A stretch of DNA of 64,000 bases from an uncultured Thermoleophilia bacterium (GCA_963736945.1 CAVTQW010000009.1:199201-263200), one strand, 5' to 3'; counted from the first letter of the stretch, positions 38,236 to 47,964 are shown. The notes: generated by a model not told the origin, from the letters alone. Numbers and translations: made by a program.

Positions 38236-39540
38236 CTACCGCGCCCAGGGCGGCGGCTTCGCCTTGACGCACGGCTGGCTGCCGGGCCCAGGTGGCGGCG
38301 CCGCCGAGAGGAGCCCGGCGAAGGTCTGCTCGACGTCGTGCGCAACGGAGAGCGGCCGCGGGACGAGATGGCCGTCCTGCCACCGCATGCGCACGAGCGG
38401 AACGTCGGCGACCGCCTGTCTGTGGGAATCGAGCCGCACGTCACCACGCGGAAGATCGATCCGGAGCTTCGCCAGCGCCTCCCGTAGCCGGACGCGGCCG
38501 CCGGAGAGATCCCCGCCGGTCTCGTCCACGGCGGCGAGCAGGGCGCGAACCGCGTCGCCGTAACCGATCACGAACGACTGGTCGCCGAGGCTCGCAGGCA
38601 GCCCTTTGAACGTCTTCGCATAGCGCTGCCGGTAGCCGGTGAGCTCCCGCGACGGCGTCGTGACGGGCATCAGCGAGGTCGAGACGACCCGGTCGAGACG
38701 ACGGGAGACCGGCTGCAGCACGGTCGGATCCTCGATCAGCGGGCCGTTCAGCAGCAGCTGGCGGTCGGGCTGCTCTAGGCGCTGCAGGACGCCTCGCGTG
38801 ACCTCGAGCGGCGAGTCGAAGCTCGTCAGAAGGAGTGCCACGCCGTCGGGGCGTGAGCGTAACGCCTGAGCCGCCGGGTCATTCATCGGAACCCACGGCG
38901 AGAGGTAGACCTCGTCGGTGATCCTTCCCCCCAGCGAGCAAAACTCGGCGATGAAGGCGGCCGCAGCGCCCCAGCCGGGAGAGGCGTCACCCGCGAGGAT
39001 GCTCGCGCGACGCCAGCCGAGATCGCGGTACGCGTAGGCTCCGAGCCCCGCCATGTGCTGCCCGTAGTCGGTCTCGAAGCGGTAGACGTTGGCCACCGGC
39101 TTCCGCAACGTGACTTCCTGCTCGTCCCAGAACGTCGCCACGAACGGCACGGTCGGGTACAGCCGCGCTACGTCGCGAATCGAAGGGCCGTTGCCACCGA
39201 CGATCGCGTCGACGTGCTCCGTCTCGACCAGCCGACGGGCCTCCTCGAGGAAGACGGCGAACTCGCCGGTCTCGGCACAACCGCGCACGAGCTCGACCTT
39301 GCGACCGCCCGCGGTCGCGTCCGTGACCCCATCCGTCGGAGCCGGGCCGCGGAGGCGAGCGCCGCGTTCGATGAGCGGCAGCTCGACGCCCGACAGCTCC
39401 GCCTCCTCGAACGCGTGGAAGGGGCCCTGGCAATCGGTGAGCACGCCGAGCCGGAACGGCCGATCGTTGCCCACACACCCGGCCGCCAGCATCGCGCAGG
39501 CCGCGACGACGAGCGCCGCTACGAGGCGGCTAGCTCTCAT
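38236..39540 (-). CDS. Branched-chain-amino-acid-type (type I) substrate-binding lipoprotein, no transporter nearby
   Basis: LAAGC lipobox; FRLGVLTDCQGPF, EARRLVETEHVDAIVG, YAYRDLGWRRA. Confidence 0.8.
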   Translation of the reverse strand: MRASRLVAALVVAACAMLAAGCVGNDRPFRLGVLTDCQGPFHAFEEAELSGVELPLIERGARLRGPAPTDGVTDATAGGRKVELVRGCAETGEFAVFLEEARRLVETEHVDAIVGGNGPSIRDVARLYPTVPFVATFWDEQEVTLRKPVANVYRFETDYGQHMAGLGAYAYRDLGWRRASILAGDASPGWGAAAAFIAEFCSLGGRITDEVYLSPWVPMNDPAAQALRSRPDGVALLLTSFDSPLEVTRGVLQRLEQPDRQLLLNGPLIEDPTVLQPVSRRLDRVVSTSLMPVTTPSRELTGYRQRYAKTFKGLPASLGDQSFVIGYGDAVRALLAAVDETGGDLSGGRVRLREALAKLRIDLPRGDVRLDSHRQAVADVPLVRMRWQDGHLVPRPLSVAHDVEQTFAGLLSAAPPPGPGSQPCVKAKPPPWAR

Positions 39541-41383
39541 TCGCCGTCACCCAGACGCGGCCGAGTCCGTAGGTCACCTCGCTGGGTGCGCCCGCGACCG
39601 GGATCGTCTTCACGATGTCGAGCGAGCGCGGATCGATCCTGCTCACCGAGCCGTCGAGCGCGCTCGCAATCCACACGCTCCCGCCTCCGACTGCCACACC
39701 TGCCGCGCCGCGTGGCACATGGATCGTCCGCACGACCTGCCCCGTGCCCGGGTCGAGGCGGGAGAGCACATCGTCGATCGCCCCCGTCACCCATACGCCT
39801 CCCTCCCCCACCGCGATCGAGCGCGGGGCGAACGGGAGCTGCGTCGCGTGCAGGATGCGGCCCGTCCGGAGATCGACCTTGAACACACGGCGGTCGGCAA
39901 CGTCACCCACCACCCACAGCGCGCCCTCCCCGATCGCCATGTCCCGCATCGCGCTCCGGGCCGTCTCGCCCGAGCGCGGCTCCTGGAACGGGACGAAGAC
40001 CGAGCGCTCGATCTTCATCGGCTGCGAACCGGCTGAGACGCGGACGAGGAAGGGACAGCCCGCCACCCAGAGGACTCCACGTCGGGCCGCGACCGAGCAC
40101 GAGAGCACGTCCACCCCGTCCTCGCGAGCGCCCGTGATCGCGTTGTAGCGCGCCACGATGCCCTCGAACGGCGTCTGGCCGTCGCTCGCGACGTAGAGCT
40201 CGTCCCCGGACGCCGCGAGGTCACGCGGCTCGCCGGCCGTCGTGAACCGCTCCACCTCACCGGTGGCGGGATCGATCCTCCAGAGCGATCCGTCCCGCAG
40301 CGACCCAACCCAGACGCGGCTGCGGCTCGTGGTCACCGAGCTCGGATGGGCGGAGACCTTGTACGTCGTCGCGACCCGGTCGCCGACGGGGTCGATCGAG
40401 ACGATCGTGCCGCCCTTCACGGCGGCCGGACCGCCGTCCGAGCGCGCGAGCACCACGGCGCCCACCGCCACGACGATGGCGACGAGGGCGAGGCATCCGG
40501 CCAGTGCGAGCGGCCAACGGCGCGGCGCCTTCGCAGCGGGAACGAGCCCGAGCGCGGCCGTCGCCTCCTCCACGAACCCGGTCGCGGTAGGCTGGCGGAC
40601 CTCGCGCTCCTTCGCCATCGCCCGCCGGAGGACGCAGTCGACCGCGGGCGGCAGCCCCGGCAGCCGCTCGCTCGCGGACGGTGGCTCCTCGTCGAGGTGC
40701 GCGTAGACGATCGCGACCTCCGACACGCCTGTGAACGGGACGGAGCCCGTGAGCGTCTCGAAGAGGAGGCAGCCGAGCGCGTAGACGTCCGCGCGCCCGT
40801 CGACCTCCTCGCCACGGATCTGCTCGGGGGCGACGTAGTCGACCGAGCCCATCAGGCTGCCGTCGGCGGGCTCGCGGTCGGAGGCGCTCTGCGTGAGCCC
40901 GAAATCGGCGAGGTAGACGTGCTCGCGCCCGCCCTGCTGGTCAATGAGGACGTTCGACGGCTTCACGTCGCGGTGGACGAGTCCGAGCGCATGCGCGGCG
41001 TCGAGCGCGGCCGCGACCTGCGCCGCGAGCGCGATCGCCCGCGCCGGATCGAGCGCCCCTTGCCGCCGCAGCAGCGCCTTCAGGTCGGTGCCGTCGACGT
41101 AGCGCATCGAGATGAAGAGGCGCCCGTCCGCCTCGCCCGCCTCATACACCGGAACGACGTTCGGGTGGTCGAGACTCGCGGCAAGCCGCGACTCGCGGAG
41201 CAACCGCTCGCGGAAGCCGGGGTCGTCGGCGAGCCGCCGCAGCAGCACCTTCAAGGCGACGCGCCGCCCGAGGCGCTCATCGCGGGCGCGATACACCTCC
41301 CCCATGCCCCCGCTGCCGATCGGCTCCTCGACGACGTACTCCGCAATGGTCGTCCCGACAGCGACATGCGACTCGACGGGCAA
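39530..41383 (-). CDS. Hanks-type Ser/Thr kinase with TM helix and extracellular beta-propeller
   Basis: IGSGGMGEVY, VALK, HRDVKPSN, DFG, APE; TM; repeated VWV..RIDP blades. Confidence 0.9.
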   Translation of the reverse strand: MPVESHVAVGTTIAEYVVEEPIGSGGMGEVYRARDERLGRRVALKVLLRRLADDPGFRERLLRESRLAASLDHPNVVPVYEAGEADGRLFISMRYVDGTDLKALLRRQGALDPARAIALAAQVAAALDAAHALGLVHRDVKPSNVLIDQQGGREHVYLADFGLTQSASDREPADGSLMGSVDYVAPEQIRGEEVDGRADVYALGCLLFETLTGSVPFTGVSEVAIVYAHLDEEPPSASERLPGLPPAVDCVLRRAMAKEREVRQPTATGFVEEATAALGLVPAAKAPRRWPLALAGCLALVAIVVAVGAVVLARSDGGPAAVKGGTIVSIDPVGDRVATTYKVSAHPSSVTTSRSRVWVGSLRDGSLWRIDPATGEVERFTTAGEPRDLAASGDELYVASDGQTPFEGIVARYNAITGAREDGVDVLSCSVAARRGVLWVAGCPFLVRVSAGSQPMKIERSVFVPFQEPRSGETARSAMRDMAIGEGALWVVGDVADRRVFKVDLRTGRILHATQLPFAPRSIAVGEGGVWVTGAIDDVLSRLDPGTGQVVRTIHVPRGAAGVAVGGGSVWIASALDGSVSRIDPRSLDIVKTIPVAGAPSEVTYGLGRVWVTANES

Positions 41384-41984
41384 ATCCGGCCTCTTTCGTC
41401 TCGACGAGCACACGTTGGCGCAGCACGCTGGACGAATCCTGGAGGGATGGTAGACGCGTTCTCCCGCGGCGGCCACTCGCCCGCGCGTGCCGAAGTGGCG
41501 CAGCAGAATCTTCCTCCGTATCAAGCCTCACCCGCCAGCGAGGGTTGGTGTCTCTAGGCGCCGTCGAACGTCTTGCGGTGGAGGAGGCACGCGTTCGGCC
41601 CGGCGCGAAACTTTGTTCAGCGACGGGATCCGCGTGCTGCTCGAGTGGTGGAACGCAGGCGGGACGGTTCTGGCCCTCGAATCCGAATCGCCGGCCAGCC
41701 TGTCGGTCGCGAAGATCTTAGTCAGGGAATACAGTCCCTCGCGTCCAATCCGGCGTCGTACCGTTCTGACCGTTCCTGAAGTGACACGTCGTGCGGCGGC
41801 CGATGAGATTCTTGAAGCGGTTGGAGCTCGTGCAGGTCGTGGAGGAGCGCGCGGTCGAGCGTCGCCTCGTAGCGTCAGAGCTTCGAAAGGGCGTCGGCGC
41901 CCGAGGCGTCGCGAATGAACGCGCGGCCGAGACGTGCCAGGTCGCTTGAGCGCGCCTCGTCCGCGTCGCGAACGCGCTGCATCC

Positions 41985-42100
41985 GCTCGGCGTCGCCTGG
42001 ACCCGCTCATCTGGCGCCTCTGGCAAGACCGAACCAGCTACGACCCCAACCGCCACCGCAGCCTCAACCAACTCCTCACAACCCAGGGTTGACACAGGAC
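41985..42100 (+). mobile_element. IS110-family 3' end remnant
   Basis: IWRLWQDRTSYDPNRHRSL..QG* followed by ttgacaca. Confidence 0.5.
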
Positions 42101-42103
42101 GTC

Positions 42104-42529
42104 TCATGCGGCCACCTGCGTCGCGGCCTCGGCTCCCTCGATCATGACGCCGGCCACGACCGCGAACGCCTCGCTCCACGCGCGCTCGAACTCCGTGTTC
42201 CACGCGGCGCCTGCGATGTCAGCCATCGAGGCGATCAGCACCTCGCCGACAACGGGGTAGTGCTCGGGCTGTGCCCCGTAGGCGACATGACGAGCGCCGA
42301 GCTCGCGCAGCTTGGGGATGATCGGGTCGAGATTCCGCAGGGATTTGCGGAGGAGGACGAGGGTGCCGAGCAGCATCGTTTTCTGCCGCGTCAGGTCGGT
42401 GCCTTCGAAGAGCGGCTTCACCGCGGGTGCCGAGGCGAAGAGGCGGGCGTAGAACACGTCCATCAGCTCGTCACCCCGGGGGGCGACCAGGTCGAAGCTC
42501 GTCTCGAGCACGTTCAGGTCGAGGCTCAT
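42104..42529 (-). CDS. Single-domain globin (flavohaemoglobin/Vgb-like)
   Basis: FYARLF (TyrB10), PLF (PheCD1), RQK (GlnE7), LGARHVAYG (HisF8), HYPVVG. Confidence 0.9.
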   Translation of the reverse strand: MSLDLNVLETSFDLVAPRGDELMDVFYARLFASAPAVKPLFEGTDLTRQKTMLLGTLVLLRKSLRNLDPIIPKLRELGARHVAYGAQPEHYPVVGEVLIASMADIAGAAWNTEFERAWSEAFAVVAGVMIEGAEAATQVAA

Positions 42530-42609
42530 CGGATCTCCTTGCTCACGTTGACGCGAGGAGTTTCGTCTCTCTCGCTGCTCGTGGACAGAGAGCGATCCGC
42601 CCGAACCGT

Positions 42610-42645
42610 GGCGGTCAGACGCCGGGTTGCTGGCGGATTTCCGCC
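42610..42645 (-). promoter_or_regulatory. Paired GGCGG-N4-CCGCC dyads upstream of the globin
   Basis: ggcggatttccgcc at 42632-42645 and ggcggtcagacgcc at 42610-42623. Confidence 0.55.
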
Positions 42646-42650
42646 GCGCT

Positions 42651-43310
42651 TCAGCGGCCGAGCAACGCGAGGACCGCGAGCACGCGGCGGTTGTCGTCCT
42701 CCGTGTCGGACAGGCCGAGCTTCTGGAAGATCGCCTGCACGTGGCGCTCCAGCGCCCGTGAGCTGAGGTAGAGCTCCTTCGCGATCGCCCGGTTCGAGCG
42801 ACCCTCTGCGATCAGCCCGAGAACAGCGCGCTCGCGGTCGGTGAGGTCGTCGAGCGACGAGCGTCGGTGACCGTCGACGAGGCTCTTGACGACCTCGGGA
42901 TCGAACGCGGTGCCACCATTGGCGACCCGTTCGACCGCCTCGATGAAGTCCGAGACGTCACGGACGCGTTCCTTGAGCAGGTATCCGACACCCGAGGCAT
43001 CGTCCCCGATGAGCTCGAGCATGTACGCCGGCTCGAGATGCTGCGAGAGGACGAGAACGGCAACCGTCGGCTGCTTGCGGCGGATCTCGGCGGCGGCGAC
43101 GAGTCCGTCGTCGGCGTTCCCGGGCGGCATGCGCACGTCGACGATCGCGATGTCCGGCGTGTCCGAGCGGACCTTCCGGAGGAGCTCGTCTGCGCTCCCG
43201 GCCCGGCCGACGATCTCGTGCCCGGCGTCCTCGAGCAGCGATGCGATGCCCTCGCGCAGGAGCGCGTTGTCGTCGGCGACCACGATGCGCAGTTGTCGGG
43301 CGTCTGTCAC
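42651..43310 (-). CDS. NarL/LuxR-family response regulator
   Basis: VVADD, VDVRMPP, GYLLK, LTDRERAVLGLIAEGRSNRAIA. Confidence 0.92.
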   Translation of the reverse strand: MTDARQLRIVVADDNALLREGIASLLEDAGHEIVGRAGSADELLRKVRSDTPDIAIVDVRMPPGNADDGLVAAAEIRRKQPTVAVLVLSQHLEPAYMLELIGDDASGVGYLLKERVRDVSDFIEAVERVANGGTAFDPEVVKSLVDGHRRSSLDDLTDRERAVLGLIAEGRSNRAIAKELYLSSRALERHVQAIFQKLGLSDTEDDNRRVLAVLALLGR

Positions 43311-43361
43311 GTCTCTCCGATCGAGATGGAGAAATCCAGTCGCGTAGCATTCATAGTCGGT

Positions 43362-44898
43362 ATGGAGACGGGGGACACGGGTGCACGCTTCGCCGACGTG
43401 GGTGATCTCCAGGCGGTGGAGCACGCCGTCGCCCGGATCCTGGCCGAAACGGATCGGCCTGTCGAGGCGTATGCGTCCGTTCTCGAGGCAATCGGAGGCT
43501 CGCTTGGGTGGGAGCTCGGCGCCGTCTGGGAGCTCGGGCCGGAAGATGAGCGACTGCGCTGCCTCCGCACCTGGCACCTACGCGACGGCGCCCGGGAGTT
43601 CGAGTCGCTGAGCGAGCGCATCGCGCTCGCTCGGGGTGAGGGGCTCCCAGGCCGCGTCCTCGAGGCGGGCGAGCCGGTCTGGCTGGTCGACGCACCCGAG
43701 GACGGCAACTTCCCACGGGCCGCGGTCGCGCGTCGCGACGGCCTGCATGCCGCATTCGGCTTCCCACTGTTGAGCGCACGAGGAGTGGTCGGTGTGATGG
43801 AGTTCTTCTCGCGCGAGTTGCGTGAGCCTGACGAGCGCCTGCTCGAGACGATGCGTGAGCTGGGAAGCCAGGTGGGTCAGTTCGTGGCGCGGCGTCAGGC
43901 GGAGGACGCGGTGCGCAGGAGCGAGTCACGCCTTCGCGCGATGCTCGAGGCCGCCCTCGACGGGGTCGTCAGCATGGACGCGAGCGGCCGTGTGATCGGC
44001 TGGAATCATGCGGCCGAGACGAGCGTTCGGGTATCGCGAGGACGAGGTGATGGGACGCGAGATGGCGGAACTCATCGTTCCACCGGCTCTGCGTGCGGCG
44101 CACCGAAGCGGGCTCGCGCGCTTTCTCGAGACCGAGCATCCCGTCATCCTCGACAGGCGGCTCGAGCTGACCGGCATGCACAAGAATGGGACCGAATTCC
44201 CGGTCGAGCTGACGATCACGAGGATCGTCCTTCCGGGCGCCCCGACCTTCACGGGCTACCTGCGAGACATCAGCGACCGCAAGCAGGCGGAAGTCGAGCT
44301 GCGCGCATCCCGGGCTCGCCTCGTCGAGGTCGCCGACGCGGAGCGACGCCGGATCCAGCGAAACCTCCACGACGGCGCGCAGCAGCGGCTCACCGCTGTG
44401 CTCCTCACCCTCGGCCGTCTGCGGGAGTCGCTGGCCGAGGGCAACGACCGGCTCGATATCGCGATCGAAGAGGTTTCCGCCGGGTTGCAGGAGATCCGCG
44501 AGCTCGCGGGCGGCCTGCATCCGTCTGTCCTCGCGGAGCGCGGGCTCGAGGCGGCTCTGAACGCGATCGTACTCCGGGCCCCGTATCCCGTCGAGCTCCG
44601 CACGAAGCTCACCGACCAACTGCCGGAGCAGGTCGAGGCCGCAGCCTACTACGTCGTTGCGGAAGGTCTGGCCAACGTTCAGAAGCACGCCGGCAGAAGC
44701 CAGGTCGTCGTCGACGCCAGAGCGGAGAGCGGAGCGCTGCTCGTCGAGGTCCGCGACGACGGCGTCGGCGGTGCGGACGAGGAAGGCACCGGGCTGCGCG
44801 GGCTCGCGGATCGGGTGGAGGCATTCGGGGGCCGGCTTACGCTGACGAGCCCGGCCGGGGGCGGAACGCGCCTCCTGGCCGAGATTCCTTTGGCATAG
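43362..44898 (+). CDS. GAF-PAS sensor histidine kinase, HisKA_3 type (frameshift near 44025)
   Basis: GAF GEGLPGRV; PAS WNHAAE..FPVELTI; RNLHDGAQQRL; EGLANVQKHA; DDGVGG; no TM. Confidence 0.88.
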
Positions 44899-44924
44899 CG
44901 CCGCTAGGCCCTCCGGTGCGCCCT

Positions 44925-44961
44925 GGCGGGAAACCGCCGGATCTTGCGGCCGGAAACCGTC
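44925..44961 (+). promoter_or_regulatory. Paired GGCGG-N4-CCGCC dyads upstream of the PKD gene
   Basis: ggcgggaaaccgcc at 44925-44938 and ggccggaaaccgtc at 44948-44961. Confidence 0.55.
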
Positions 44962-45076
44962 GGCGATCGGCGTGCGCACCCCCTGGTGGGCTCGGGTGGT
45001 GCGGAGGCATCGTGTTGCCTTGTTCCCAGGCCCCGGCACCGGTGGCCTTCAAGCGAGGCGAAAGGACTATCCCAAG

Positions 45077-46840
45077 ATGTCGTTTTGGAAGACATTCCAA
45101 CAGCAGGACTCGAGCACCCGGCTTAGTCGGCGGCGCGGCCGCCGCAGCGGCCAGGCGCTTGTTGCCGTATGCCTGACGGTTCTCGCGGCGATCCTTCTCG
45201 CGGGCCCGGCGGCAGCCGCTCCCGCGACCAACACGCAGGTGGTCAAGGTGACCAGCAACGAGGCTGAGCTTGGCGGCTTTCAGCTCGAAGCGCCGATCGT
45301 GATCCCCGATCCGCTGCCGATCGTGCTCACCAATCTCACTGTGAAGGCGAAGGCGAAGTGGAGTGGCGAGCTTACGACCAACGTGGGCTGGGACAGCGAC
45401 AAGGTTCGGCAGGGAGCCGACCTTGCGGTGACCCGTGCAGCTCCGATCACCAACGGCAAGCTCGCCGTCACGTGGGAGCTCTTCGGGGAGATCGACAGCA
45501 TCGACTTCGGCCCATTGACCCTCGACACGGACAACGTGTCGTGCGACGTGAAACTCTCCGGCGGCGGATTCGACTGCGAGGCGGACTCGCCGGGCATTCC
45601 GCTGCCCGGGGCGCTCCCCTCGCCGATCCCCGGCACGTTCATCTTCGCCAAGCTCGGTATCGGCGTGAAGTTCAGCGTGACGCCTGAGGGCGCCGTCGTC
45701 ACGCGCGGTCTCTCGATCGGCGGCAACCAGGTCGGTAGCGTGGACGACCTCCCGCTCACGCCATCGGTGCAGACCGACAGCTTCCAGGTGCCGTGCGGGG
45801 CGAAAGCCGGTGACCAGGTCGACTACAAGCTCGACCCGTTCCACTGGACGCCGGCGACGGTCGCGAAGGAGCAGGTTGAAGTCCGGATCGTCAATACCCT
45901 CGACGTGTTCGGGCTGATCGACATGTTCGACTACAAGGCGATCGGCGTTGGCTCGGAGATCGTCTCGAATCCGAACTTCGACCTCACGAGCGGTGGCTTC
46001 ATCACCTCGATGGGACCGCTCCAGGCGAACAACGTCTCGCCGACGATTGCCCCACTCGGCCAGTTCTCCGGCACGGAGGGCGCCACGGTCGGATTCTCGG
46101 CGTCAGTGAGCTCGAAGTGCCCGATCGCTTCCTACGTGTGGGAGTTCTCGAACGGCACGAAGTCGTACGGGCCCTCCCCGCAGCGCGCGTTCGGCGACAA
46201 CGGCGTCTACGACGGCCAGCTGACGGCGACCGACGTCACCGGTCTCTCGGCCACACAGAGCTTCACGGTCTCGGTGGCAAACGCGAAGCCGTCGGTCAAC
46301 GCCGGCCCTGACACGACGAGCGACTGGGGGAGGCTCGTGCAGTTCAACGGCCAGGCCACCGACCCCGGCTCGAACGACCAGGGTACGCTGCAGTACACGT
46401 GGAGCTTCGGTGACGGTTCGCCGAGCGCTACGGGCGGCCCCAGCGTGGGACACGCGTACGCATCCCCGGGCGACTACAACGCGACGCTCGAGGTCTGCGA
46501 CAAGGACAGCGCCTGCAGCACCGACAACCGGCTCGTCCACGTGACCAAGCGGGACACGACGCTCGGCTACACCGGTGTGCTCTCGTCGGTTCCCTCGAAG
46601 ACGGTCGCGCTGACGGCCAACCTCATCGACGAGTACGCCCAGCCCGTCAGCGGCAAGCAGGTCACGTTCGTCCTCGGTGCCCAGACGGCAACCGGCACGA
46701 GCGATGCAAGCGGGCACGTTGTCGTCAACATGAAGCTCACGCAGAAGTCGGGGTCGTACCCCTTGAGCGCGACCTTCCCGAGCGGCGACGCGAAGTACGA
46801 CACATCGTCCGATGCGCGGACTTTCGTGATCGGCAAGTAA
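45077..46840 (+). CDS. Secreted protein with PKD/Ig-like domains
   Basis: Signal peptide; YVWEFSNG, YTWSFGDG..HAYASPGDYNATLEV. Confidence 0.8.
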   Translation: MSFWKTFQQQDSSTRLSRRRGRRSGQALVAVCLTVLAAILLAGPAAAAPATNTQVVKVTSNEAELGGFQLEAPIVIPDPLPIVLTNLTVKAKAKWSGELTTNVGWDSDKVRQGADLAVTRAAPITNGKLAVTWELFGEIDSIDFGPLTLDTDNVSCDVKLSGGGFDCEADSPGIPLPGALPSPIPGTFIFAKLGIGVKFSVTPEGAVVTRGLSIGGNQVGSVDDLPLTPSVQTDSFQVPCGAKAGDQVDYKLDPFHWTPATVAKEQVEVRIVNTLDVFGLIDMFDYKAIGVGSEIVSNPNFDLTSGGFITSMGPLQANNVSPTIAPLGQFSGTEGATVGFSASVSSKCPIASYVWEFSNGTKSYGPSPQRAFGDNGVYDGQLTATDVTGLSATQSFTVSVANAKPSVNAGPDTTSDWGRLVQFNGQATDPGSNDQGTLQYTWSFGDGSPSATGGPSVGHAYASPGDYNATLEVCDKDSACSTDNRLVHVTKRDTTLGYTGVLSSVPSKTVALTANLIDEYAQPVSGKQVTFVLGAQTATGTSDASGHVVVNMKLTQKSGSYPLSATFPSGDAKYDTSSDARTFVIGK

Positions 46841-46858
46841 CGGCGATCGAATTGCCGC

Positions 46859-46897
46859 ATACGCCGGGGCGAGCCCTTCTGAGCCGCCCCGGCGTAT
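46859..46897 (+). terminator. Stem-loop terminator
   Basis: atacgccggggcg / cgccccggcgtat. Confidence 0.7.
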
Positions 46898-47302
46898 CGC
46901 TGCGATCCCCTCGCCAACCCCGTGGATCGCCGCGCGCCTCGTAGCTCCGCCGTGCCAACACAGTGCGCGACGTGGAAGCAGACCGCTCGACGTTCACACG
47001 AAAGCCTGATGTAAGCCTGTCAGACTCCCCCGACCTCCAGCCTTCGAAGGGTGCCGGCGCCGGCTTCCTCTCGCCCGAACAGCGACCGCCGGCTTCGATG
47101 ATCGGCGTTCGCACGCCTCGTGCCTCGTACCCGATCCTTTCCACCCAAGAAACCGAGGCGCGGTCTTGGCCGAAACGCGGCGGGTCAGGTTCCGATCAGG
47201 TCACACACACCAGCCCCGACGCAGCGTGACCGACGCGCGTTCACAAAAACCGCCGGAACGAGCCAATGCGACCTCCCCCGACCTCCGCTGACCATCGTCG
47301 TC

Positions 47303-47328
47303 CCGGCCTGTCACGCCTGAGGTCGCGG
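47303..47328 (+). other. tRNA-Asp(GTC) anticodon-arm fragment
   Basis: ccggcctgtcacgcctgaggtcgcgg, nearly identical to the 61631 fragment. Confidence 0.5.
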
Positions 47329-47964
47329 TAAATGTTCGCTATCTCCCGCATTGTGTCCGGTGGCTCGGAACCCGCGGGCCACGGTGGTGAGCGCTTGCTG
47401 CCAGGTGCGCTCCTCGTCGCCCGCCGGGAGGATGCGAAGAATCGTGCCGCGTAGCTCGGCGTTCGCTAGCCCCTCCAGCATCGCGTTGAACTCAACGGCT
47501 GCGTCTGGCACCGTCTTCTCCCCGAGGAGATCCGCCTCTGCGAGCCGCTCGACCTTCCCCAGCAGGCCGGCGAGGGCCCGCTCGCGCGCCTTGACGACCT
47601 CAGGTCCGGCCGGGAAGTTCGGTGCGATGCGCTGAAACGCGATCCGATAGAGGGCCGGGTGCTCGAGAACGAGTGAGCGAAAGACAGGCACTCCAACGGC
47701 TATGAGGTCGGCAACCGCATCGTCGGTCTCGGGCAGCTCTGCGATCCCGTCGGCGAGGAACTCGAATGCGCTCTGCGCGAGTGCGTCGGCGAGCAGGCCC
47801 TCTTTGGACCCGAACAGGCTGTAGACGGCGCGCGTCGTGGTGCCGACCTCGCGGGCGACGGCGCGAACGGAGAATGCGCCGATCCCGGACTCGGCGACGA
47901 TTCTCTCCGTCGCCGCTCGGAGGGCCGCGCGCGTTTCCTCGTCGTGCTCCTTGGGCCGGCCCAC
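47311..47964 (-). CDS. TetR-family regulator
   Basis: FSVRAVAREVGTTTRAVYSLFGSKEGL. Confidence 0.9.
   Translation of the reverse strand: MGRPKEHDEETRAALRAATERIVAESGIGAFSVRAVAREVGTTTRAVYSLFGSKEGLLADALAQSAFEFLADGIAELPETDDAVADLIAVGVPVFRSLVLEHPALYRIAFQRIAPNFPAGPEVVKARERALAGLLGKVERLAEADLLGEKTVPDAAVEFNAMLEGLANAELRGTILRILPAGDEERTWQQALTTVARGFRATGHNAGDSEHLPRPQA

Follow-up and report, generated by a model that had tools for sequence, protein, structure and literature searches.

Globins and heme-PAS proteins are known to cooperate in gas signaling, as in globin-coupled histidine kinases and the DosC-DosP system of Escherichia coli. Here we describe a locus from an uncultured Thermoleophilia bacterium in which a globin gene adjoins a putative gas-sensing two-component pair, within a stretch of 64,000 nt (GCA_963736945.1, CAVTQW010000009.1:199201-263200; hereafter the window, with positions counted from its first letter). 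The globin gene and a gene for a PKD-domain protein flank a divergently transcribed response regulator (RR) and histidine kinase (HK), and each outer gene is preceded by a pair of short palindromes, or dyads. We propose, with a probability of roughly 0.6, that these dyads are operator boxes of a small regulon under this two-component pair.

The closest described parallel for such promoters is DevR of Mycobacterium tuberculosis, the regulator of the DosS/DosT-DosR (also DevS/DevT-DevR) system. According to PMC3177182, every DevR promoter has at least two boxes—promoter classes with two, three, and four boxes are distinguished—and a strong primary box is helically phased with a degenerate secondary one (e.g., at -63.5 and -42.5). 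The dyads of our locus, like DevR boxes, are 5 + N4 + 5 palindromes with an A/T-rich center. A second parallel comes from Streptomyces coelicolor, for which PMC4766573 places a nitric oxide (NO)-responsive DevSR and a flavohemoglobin in one NO-homeostasis circuit with nitrate reductase.

Conservation of the Boxes across Related Loci

How is the locus built? Gene calls and Pfam domains bear out the order globin <- RR <- -> HK -> PKD, which had been proposed in an earlier note made from the sequence alone:

42104-42529, minus strand: globin gene (Pfam Globin; 141 aa; ATG at 42529)
42651-43310, minus strand: RR gene (Response_reg and GerE domains; 219 aa; GTG start)
43362-44898, plus strand: HK gene (GAF, PAS, HisKA_3, and HATPase_c domains; divergent from the RR gene)
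45077-46840, plus strand: PKD-protein gene (two PKD domains and a weak Big_1 match; 587 aa; ATG at 45077)

The four dyads that the note had claimed are present, with a perfect distal copy and an imperfect proximal copy 22-23 bp nearer each outer gene. The perfect dyads, of the form GGCGG-N4-CCGCC, are GGCGGATTTCCGCC at 42632-42645 and GGCGGGAAACCGCC at 44925-44938; their partners are GGCGGTCAGACGCC at 42610 on the globin side (1 of 10 arm bases off, 22 bp away) and GGCCGGAAACCGTC at 44948 on the PKD side (2 of 10 arm bases off, 23 bp away). The extended unit, which we call a box, is the 16-mer TGGCGG-N4-CCGCCA, with mismatches scored over its 12 arm bases:

42631-42646, minus strand: globin box 1 (primary), TGGCGGATTTCCGCCG on the plus strand, starting 4 nt after the RR stop codon
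42609-42624, minus strand: globin box 2 (secondary), TGGCGGTCAGACGCCG on the plus strand, 2 of 12 mismatches
44924-44939, plus strand: PKD box 1 (primary), TGGCGGGAAACCGCCG, starting 26 nt after the HK stop codon
44947-44962, plus strand: PKD box 2 (weak), CGGCCGGAAACCGTCG at +23, 4 of 12 mismatches, sharing GGAAACCG with box 1

Do these boxes recur in other genomes? Scanning metagenomes with the GAF-PAS part of the kinase turned up at least 501 relatives. The 80 loci obtained in this way were pooled with the window and six genome loci to give 87, with duplicates removed by their first 80 nt. The loci were picked by kinase similarity and not by the presence of a box, the counts cover the 40 nt after a stop codon, and, because the 87 loci are mutually related, the counts overstate independence. 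A box with at most 2 of 12 mismatches, expected by chance in 1.7% of 40-nt windows, follows the RR stop codon in 36 of 63 distinct loci. Where a globin gene comes next the proportion is 33/40 (36/40 at up to three mismatches), and where none does it is 3/23. After the HK stop codon a box is found in 15 of 54 distinct loci, before differing genes. In many genomes the boxes start 1-25 nt after the RR and HK stop codons, whichever gene follows.

The globin gene itself adjoins the pair in most loci with enough flanking sequence—on the RR side in 40 of 63 and on the HK side in others. In four of these (L110-L113) it sits after the kinase, and the box there precedes the globin. The order HK <- -> RR -> globin recurs in L038, L039, L041, and L048. 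A separate search found 3979 globin relatives, the best 120 of which are 77-94% identical, and 57 globin loci in species genomes carry the titles Gaiellaceae, Solirubrobacteraceae, and Actinomycetota metagenome-assembled genomes. Among the 19 closest loci, eight have a box with at most one mismatch upstream of the globin, including two (L037 and L043) without an adjacent RR or HK gene; in L043 the box is kept though the pair lies on another contig, and a 72% identical kinase is encoded elsewhere in that genome. The synteny comparison that the earlier note had suggested thus came out in its favor, with module and boxes recurring among the 87 loci. Conservation on this scale supports reading the dyads as operators that track the two-component pair and the globin, and we take them to be real, evolutionarily conserved control sites.

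Dyad Frequency and the Case against the Boxes

What weighs against this reading? The most direct points come from the source genome itself (4.08 Mb, 69.7% G+C, 23 contigs, 86% complete). The window holds three perfect sites against 0.68 expected, a number reached in 2 of 100 shuffles, and genome-wide there is no enrichment: perfect GGCGG-N4-CCGCC occurs at 39 sites, the reversed control pattern at 86. When a pair is defined as a perfect dyad with a second one of at most 2 of 10 arm mismatches at 21-23 bp, 2 of the 39 sites are paired, both at this locus, as compared with 161/3449 (4.7%) for the other 31 GC-only arms. Paired dyads are therefore close to equally frequent in random GC-rich DNA within this genome. 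The secondary PKD box adds little, as 10% of random positions match equally well, and by itself it is not significant.

Further counterpoints come from the related loci. Seven of the 40 loci with a globin after the RR lack a box at up to two mismatches, as do 39 of the 54 kinase-downstream regions. The spacer between RR and HK holds no good box (the best has at least two mismatches in 78 loci), and self-regulation is accordingly not indicated. A PKD gene lies next to the pair in none of the 86 other loci, nor in any of the globin loci. Of five genomes whose globin has no box, three nevertheless encode GAF-PAS kinases 47-53% identical to that of the window, one has a partial match, and one has none, so that the presence-absence pattern of box and pair is not clean. 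Lastly, what ties the boxes to this particular RR is adjacency and position.

Some features do set the two sites here apart within the genome. Sites with at most one mismatch to the 16-mer number 39 in 4.08 Mb, and only the two at this locus directly follow a stop codon in a short intergenic spacer; the others lie within crude gene calls or hundreds of bases from the nearest called gene, except C10:265927. Candidates such as C2:157032 and C16:102719, inside crude gene calls and without a second box, were set aside. A second box with at most 2 of 12 mismatches accompanies the globin site only among the 39, and is equaled at 35 of 20,000 random genome positions. In the genome-wide scan proposed in the earlier note, pairing is as common for other GC-only arms. 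Conservation across loci goes far beyond chance. The within-genome case for the dyads is weak, and it is the cross-locus comparison that decides.

Promoter Anatomy

What lies between the boxes and the genes? We aligned 38 distinct globin promoters that were anchored and selected on box 1 only, so that all later positions are unbiased. Box 2, at positions 22-37 from the box 1 start, is strongly conserved (C25 in 97%, G26 in 92%, and C36 in 97%), and in nearly all loci scored the second box stands at exactly +22. A third GGCGG follows at positions 45-49, with 61-79% conservation per position. The four-base spacer is A/T-rich in DNA of 70% GC, with at least three A/T in 46 of 58 boxes. Farther downstream, a hexamer nAn(A/G)CT is found 81-83 nt from the box 1 start in 25 of the 38 promoters and at 60 nt in seven, with neither in the remaining six. 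The corresponding features of the window are as follows:

42597-42602, minus strand: third, degenerate half-box of the globin promoter (GGGCGG), 44 nt from the box 1 start, with a putative center at -42.5
42559-42564, minus strand: -10-like hexamer of the globin promoter (GAAACT), with a predicted transcription start near 42552
44969-44974, plus strand: possible third half-box of the PKD promoter (GGCGTG), read from the sequence by analogy with the globin promoters
45008-45013, plus strand: -10-like CATCGT of the PKD promoter, by analogy, with a predicted transcription start near 45020

The half-box at 42597-42602 was absent from the first description of the locus. If the hexamer is taken as the -10 element, the boxes of the three-box class, which includes the window globin, would be centered at -86.5, -64.5, and -42.5, and those of the two-box class at -64.5 and -42.5. 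We infer from this that the promoter-nearest box is centered at -42.5 in both classes.

In 10 three-box loci and the two-box locus L157, the hexamer is followed by 6 nt and then a start codon without a ribosome-binding site (L038, L041, L145, L154, L155, L158-L160, L162, and L170, besides L157). The globin mRNA is probably leaderless in those 11 loci. In other loci, the window among them, a leader of 23-37 nt carries GGAG. In the cultured Solirubrobacter soli DSM 22325 (L047, NZ_AUIK01000001.1), whose proteins are 46-66% identical to those of the window, box, globin, HK, and RR are codirectional, and a GAAGCT hexamer stands 7 nt before a start codon without a ribosome-binding site. A hairpin in the 5' leader of the globin mRNA was considered and rejected: RNAalifold gives no consensus pairs, and single-fold z scores are mostly between -1 and +1, falling below -2 in L172 and L115 only.

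The Response Regulator and Its Proposed Effect on the Promoters

Which protein binds the boxes, and to what effect? The RR combines PF00072 (E 1e-17) and PF00196 (E 2e-12), as expected of a NarL/FixJ-type regulator with a LuxR-type helix-turn-helix, and its best solved relative is M. tuberculosis DevR (3c3w, E 1.9e-22). Its acceptor motif IAIVDVRMPPGN (DVRMP) aligns with DevR VAVLDVRLPDGN, in which the acceptor Asp is D54. The tandem boxes, phased at 22 bp, appear to match the geometry of NarL/DevR-type regulators, in keeping with the earlier note's comparison to the NarL family. Where the recognition helix of DevR has K, K, and N, that of the RR has R, E, and R, and these differences would fit a different box sequence. 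The RR helix, LS(P/S)RA(V/I)ERHVQ, is nearly invariant across loci and as conserved as the box, which made a test for covariation of helix and box uninformative. The RR is most likely the protein that binds the boxes.

The boxes could instead be genuine operators of a regulator encoded elsewhere. The box-bearing globins of L037 and L043, which have no adjacent pair, would be easily understood on that account, as would the RR-HK spacer without a box. Yet boxes directly follow RR and HK stop codons, before unrelated genes, in many genomes; the 16-bp palindrome, its 22-bp tandem phasing, and the putative placement at -42.5 are those of a DevR-like regulator; and the adjacent RR has a recognition helix conserved to the same degree as the box. 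We regard an outside regulator as unlikely, if still worth keeping in mind.

Slightly less probable again is that the RR binds the boxes and represses, with the third half-box and the rest of the array occluding the promoter until a signal removes the protein. The -10 element and transcription start are putative, and a different hexamer, T(A/C)CCGT, recurs about 9 nt after the third half-box; if that one served as the -10, the third box and the core promoter would overlap. Against this, nAn(A/G)CT is spaced constantly from the nearest box, whether a promoter has two boxes or three, and in 11 loci also from the start codon without a ribosome-binding site, and a nearest box at -42.5 would occupy an activator position, as in DevR. 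We therefore continue with the adjacent RR as the presumed activator.

The Kinase as a Putative Gas Sensor

Is the kinase of this strain intact? In the window, a single additional base at about 44019-44022 breaks its gene into frame A, from 43362 to 44021, and frame B, from 44008 to 44898; the GAF domain and the start of the PAS domain are in one frame and the remainder is in the +1 frame. The first description of the locus did not include this frameshift. Six orthologues read GWNHAAET-(T/V/I)-FGY where the window has AGCG at about 44019-44022 in place of the one variable codon, and the two halves are in frame in 83 of the 87 loci, shifted in the window only, and not assessable in three. Contigs from two soil runs of different studies (X2 and X1) bridge 44021/44022 with one base fewer, in a piece of 160 nt that is otherwise identical (X2) and one of 107 nt with four other differences (X1); runs X3 and X8 yielded no contig bridging the site. 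Because 83 orthologues and near-identical soil contigs lack it, the extra base most probably reflects an assembly error or a rare variant. A real frameshift would leave this strain with a dead sensor, which would count against the regulon proposed here.

The kinase has no transmembrane segment, as had been claimed: its highest 19-residue Kyte-Doolittle mean is 1.17-1.35, against 2.46 for the N-terminal segment of the PKD protein. It resembles a cytoplasmic gas sensor, being predicted to be soluble and to carry a FixL-like PAS domain, a part of the earlier note that has gained in detail. Among solved structures, FixL heme domains make up all of the top seven matches to the PAS domain (E 3e-12 to 9e-9), and the NCBIfam models for FixL (E 5e-24) and DosP (E 6e-11) match the same region below their family cutoffs. 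No protein of the locus reaches an NCBIfam equivalog cutoff. All 44 of the 44 orthologues compared share two residues, H243 and R249 (A5 numbering). The window's H and R of LRAAHRSGLARF align to the FixL proximal His of the F-alpha helix (His200 of Bradyrhizobium japonicum FixL) and the Arg six residues on (Arg206). Arg206 and Arg220 are the distal and propionate arginines of FixL. The ATP-binding domain matches 3zxo and 3zxq.

Two features do not match FixL and speak against the proposal. At the position aligned to FixL Arg220 the kinase has Leu, preceded directly by two Arg residues, and the DHp domain is of the HisKA_3 type, unlike that of FixL. A further point on that side is that the GAF domain has no relative of known ligand. 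A search of solved structures with the GAF domain returned NifA-like, PtsP, and plant GAF domains only (E 1e-4 or weaker), and no DosS/T GAF. On balance we lean toward a direct heme-based gas sensor with a second input, in which heme binding by the PAS domain and the identity of its ligand are read from similarity to FixL.

The Globin: Output or Sensor?

The globin (Pfam Globin, E 8.6e-12) belongs to the flavohemoglobin/Vitreoscilla-type lineage, as a single domain without a reductase domain. Its best solved relatives are Methylacidiphilum infernorum HGbRL (3wfw, E 9e-23) and HGbI (3s1i) and Vitreoscilla hemoglobin (1vhb), and F26, Y27 (B10), Q49 (E7), and H81 (F8) are invariant in 33 globin orthologues. 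The window globin and its 120 best relatives are 140-179 aa long and consist of the globin domain only; longer, fused relatives were not searched for. We read the globin as the core regulated target, or output, of the pair, because the boxes follow it from locus to locus.

The earlier note had offered a different role, in which the stand-alone globin is the trans-acting heme sensor of the kinase, binding it (e.g., at the GAF domain) and setting its activity. Its tight linkage to the pair, on either side, agrees with such a role, as does a GAF domain without a known ligand, and fused globin-kinase sensors exist elsewhere. This part of the note has found no support, however. The kinase itself includes a FixL-like PAS domain, whose His at the heme-ligand position is invariant, and so probably senses gas on its own, which makes the globin an output and not the sensor; boxes precede the globin gene as they would a target, even in genomes that encode the pair on a different contig; and some loci have the pair without a globin in the available DNA of either flank. 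Predictions of a complex between kinase residues 1-294 and the globin, run on the natural pair from L126 (A5 and A6), scored 0.00 in both runs and count neither way. We judge the globin improbable as the sensor. A two-heme circuit, in which a FixL-type heme-PAS/GAF kinase drives the Vitreoscilla-type globin and the globin acts back on the kinase, as a gas buffer or by touching its orphan GAF domain directly, is a speculative extension that we hold at similarly long odds. If true, the two proteins would make up an O2/NO sensor that tunes itself and that, in uncultured actinobacteria abundant in soil, switches secreted surface proteins as well.

The PKD Protein and Other Candidate Targets

Does the regulon extend beyond the globin? 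The PKD protein has two stretches matching PKD_4 (E 1e-30), a Big_1-like match, and a hydrophobic segment at residues 27-45 (hydropathy mean 2.46). We read it as secreted or anchored, and as an accessory target specific to this genome. Its first 300 residues are predicted to form an all-beta sandwich (mean predicted local distance difference test, pLDDT, 85.7), with structural matches to macroglobulin MG domains and Vps26/arrestin (Z 8-9.5 over about 100 of 301 residues). Assigning this part to a family failed, as whole-protein Foldseek searches were dominated by Ig-repeat proteins and the domain alone gave generic beta-sandwich matches. The protein family has 113 metagenomic homologues and none in 400 sampled genomes of the class.

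Coregulation of the globin and the PKD protein, as the earlier note proposed, survives in part. Box 1 stands before both genes, and the PKD copy is identical, as a 16-mer, to the globin box of L037; by our own arithmetic (39 sites per 4.08 Mb), about 0.002 16-mers with at most one mismatch would be expected in the 178-bp HK-PKD spacer. On the other side, the link to PKD is confined to this genome and its box 2 is weak.

A third candidate site lies outside the window at C9:292710, where TGACGGAAACCCGACA is followed by TTGCGGTCGGCCGCCG at +22 and then by GTGCGG, repeating the arrangement of the promoters described above. In this region (C9:292710-293331, equivalent to L196:1211-1832) the boxes stand about 100 nt upstream of a gene for a 164-aa protein with a signal-like N terminus, 48 kb from the locus; the protein has no Pfam or NCBIfam match. 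Elsewhere, the genes behind boxes after the kinase encode a small protein of about 85 aa, an MFS transporter, collagen-repeat secreted proteins (L143 and L178), a membrane protein with a C-x2-H-x4-M motif (L121), and others that we do not name. The small proteins form a family (77-102 aa, starting MLELRLRSGxVVxFDGRVVEIF) that directly follows the kinase behind the boxes; it has no Pfam or NCBIfam match, and tblastn of the window's genome was negative. Its members are the following:

L126:5594-5854, small-protein family member
L142:1563-1868, small-protein family member
L143:1996-2304, small-protein family member
L151:2003-2236, small-protein family member
L166:5596-5865, small-protein family member
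L175:1429-1689, small-protein family member

Between the post-kinase boxes and the MFS gene of one locus (L104:8514-8756), a run of near-repeats would encode NHSATVVRRG-like units. Overall, the accessory regulon leans toward secreted proteins.

A Proposed Circuit

How might the parts work together? The kinase would sense O2, NO, or CO directly through its FixL-like heme-PAS domain, with the GAF domain as a second input. Phosphorylated RR would bind the strong box as a dimer, fill the weaker boxes cooperatively, and activate, as DevR does; with a 22-bp period the tandem boxes would lie on the same helix face, the best box farthest from the gene and the weaker ones reaching to the promoter. By binding O2 or detoxifying NO, the Vitreoscilla-type globin could then feed back on the signal. 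Accessory targets would differ by genome, and here would be the PKD protein and the putatively secreted 164-aa protein 48 kb away. Of these elements, the placement, spacing, and conservation of the boxes, the protein domains, and the invariant His are observed, whereas the binding protein, activation in preference to repression, heme binding, the ligand, and the transcription start are inferred.

That the dyads are instead RNA or DNA hairpins, acting as terminators or stabilizers of the RR and HK transcripts, or chance GC palindromes is very improbable: their distance of 4-26 nt from stop codons, the GAAA loop of one, and unremarkable within-genome statistics would agree with it, but no T-run follows them as an intrinsic terminator would require, arm positions 2 and 13 are complementary in 34 of 58 boxes and noncomplementary in 24, with two compensated—an uncompensated drift that favors a protein site—and second and third boxes at 22-bp steps, conserved over 87 loci, are not chance.

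If the operator reading is right, a regulon, an operator sequence, and a promoter architecture are predicted for a group with almost no genetics (Gaiellaceae, Solirubrobacteraceae, and unclassified soil Actinomycetota). The module is widespread in soil, with at least 501 related kinase loci in metagenome contigs, and has a cultured carrier in S. soli DSM 22325.

Genomic Surroundings

Is the block of four genes native to its genus? The globin was not found among 36 sampled genomes of the genus, nor was the N-terminal part of the PKD protein found in the sampled congeners; the GAF part of the kinase had just two weak partial matches there (27% and 48% identical). Since the globin, a close GAF kinase, and the PKD N-terminal part are missing from the sampled congeners, the block does not appear to be ancestral to the genus as sampled, and it may have been acquired. 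A DNA search of close relatives for an orthologous locus returned paralogous RR/HK genes only. A look for island borders showed no flanking repeats and no synteny with the congener G005.

Long stretches without a convincing gene flank the block at 41525-42103 and 46841-47310, the latter carrying CTCCCCCGACCTCC twice, 248 nt apart (47025 and 47273). On the left, a 129-nt noncoding stretch at 41979-42106 abuts the globin stop codon and contains TTGACA. One place in G005 matches it at 87% identity and one in a second congener (G007) at 74%, with the surrounding synteny absent, and its last 24 nt or so recur (92-100%) in five further genomes of the genus. Left of this element, the 57 nt at 41941-41997 have a 96% identical inverted copy on contig C23 of the same genome (64099-64155). 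An Rfam scan of 41500-47400 gave no match. The neighboring gene at 39530-41383 encodes a Ser/Thr protein kinase with one membrane segment and, in its C-terminal part, beta-propeller-like repeats (weak DUF6923, SGL, and Vgb_lyase matches).

Comparison with Known Systems

How does the module compare with described gas-sensing circuits? In globin-coupled kinases and DosC-DosP the globin is part of the signaling machinery, whereas here it is a separate 141-aa protein without a transmitter and an apparent transcriptional target. With FixL-FixJ of rhizobia the locus shares the similarity to a heme-PAS domain, with the proximal His and the Arg six residues on, and FixJ likewise has a LuxR-type helix-turn-helix (the NCBIfam FixJ model matches the RR, E 1e-14). 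It differs in its HisKA_3 domain, its N-terminal GAF domain, the lack of an aligned Arg220, and its targets and box.

The DosS/DosT-DosR system shares with the locus a soluble kinase with GAF, HisKA_3, and HATPase_c domains. In DosS/T it is the GAF domain that binds heme, in contrast to the FixL-like PAS domain here, which follows a GAF domain that showed no similarity to theirs in the sequence search of solved structures. The DevR half-site, GGGAC (G4G5G6A7C8T9), is unlike the TGGCGG found here, so that these are not Dev boxes, and the residues of the recognition helix differ as well. The core target here is a globin and the host a soil Thermoleophilia-like actinobacterium, unlike the M. tuberculosis system. 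In promoter design the two nonetheless agree: as in the DevR promoters described in PMC3177182, primary and secondary boxes are tandem and phased, and the nearest, as predicted here from the hexamer, would lie at about -42.5.

In S. coelicolor the flavohemoglobin, which has a reductase domain, is under NsrR, not DevR (PMC4766573), whereas the single-domain globin here stands behind the boxes of the pair. In actinobacteria, control of bacterial hemoglobin genes is otherwise tied to NsrR; at this locus such a gene would be linked directly to a putative O2/NO sensor. A literature search found no published description of the module or its motif. Judged from its sequence, the module appears to join a FixL-like sensing domain, a DosS/DesK-type transmitter, and a DevR-like regulator and promoter design to a new box sequence. 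The recurrence of a DevR-style tandem design with a different box and a FixL-type sensor bears on how gas-sensing circuits are rebuilt from parts.

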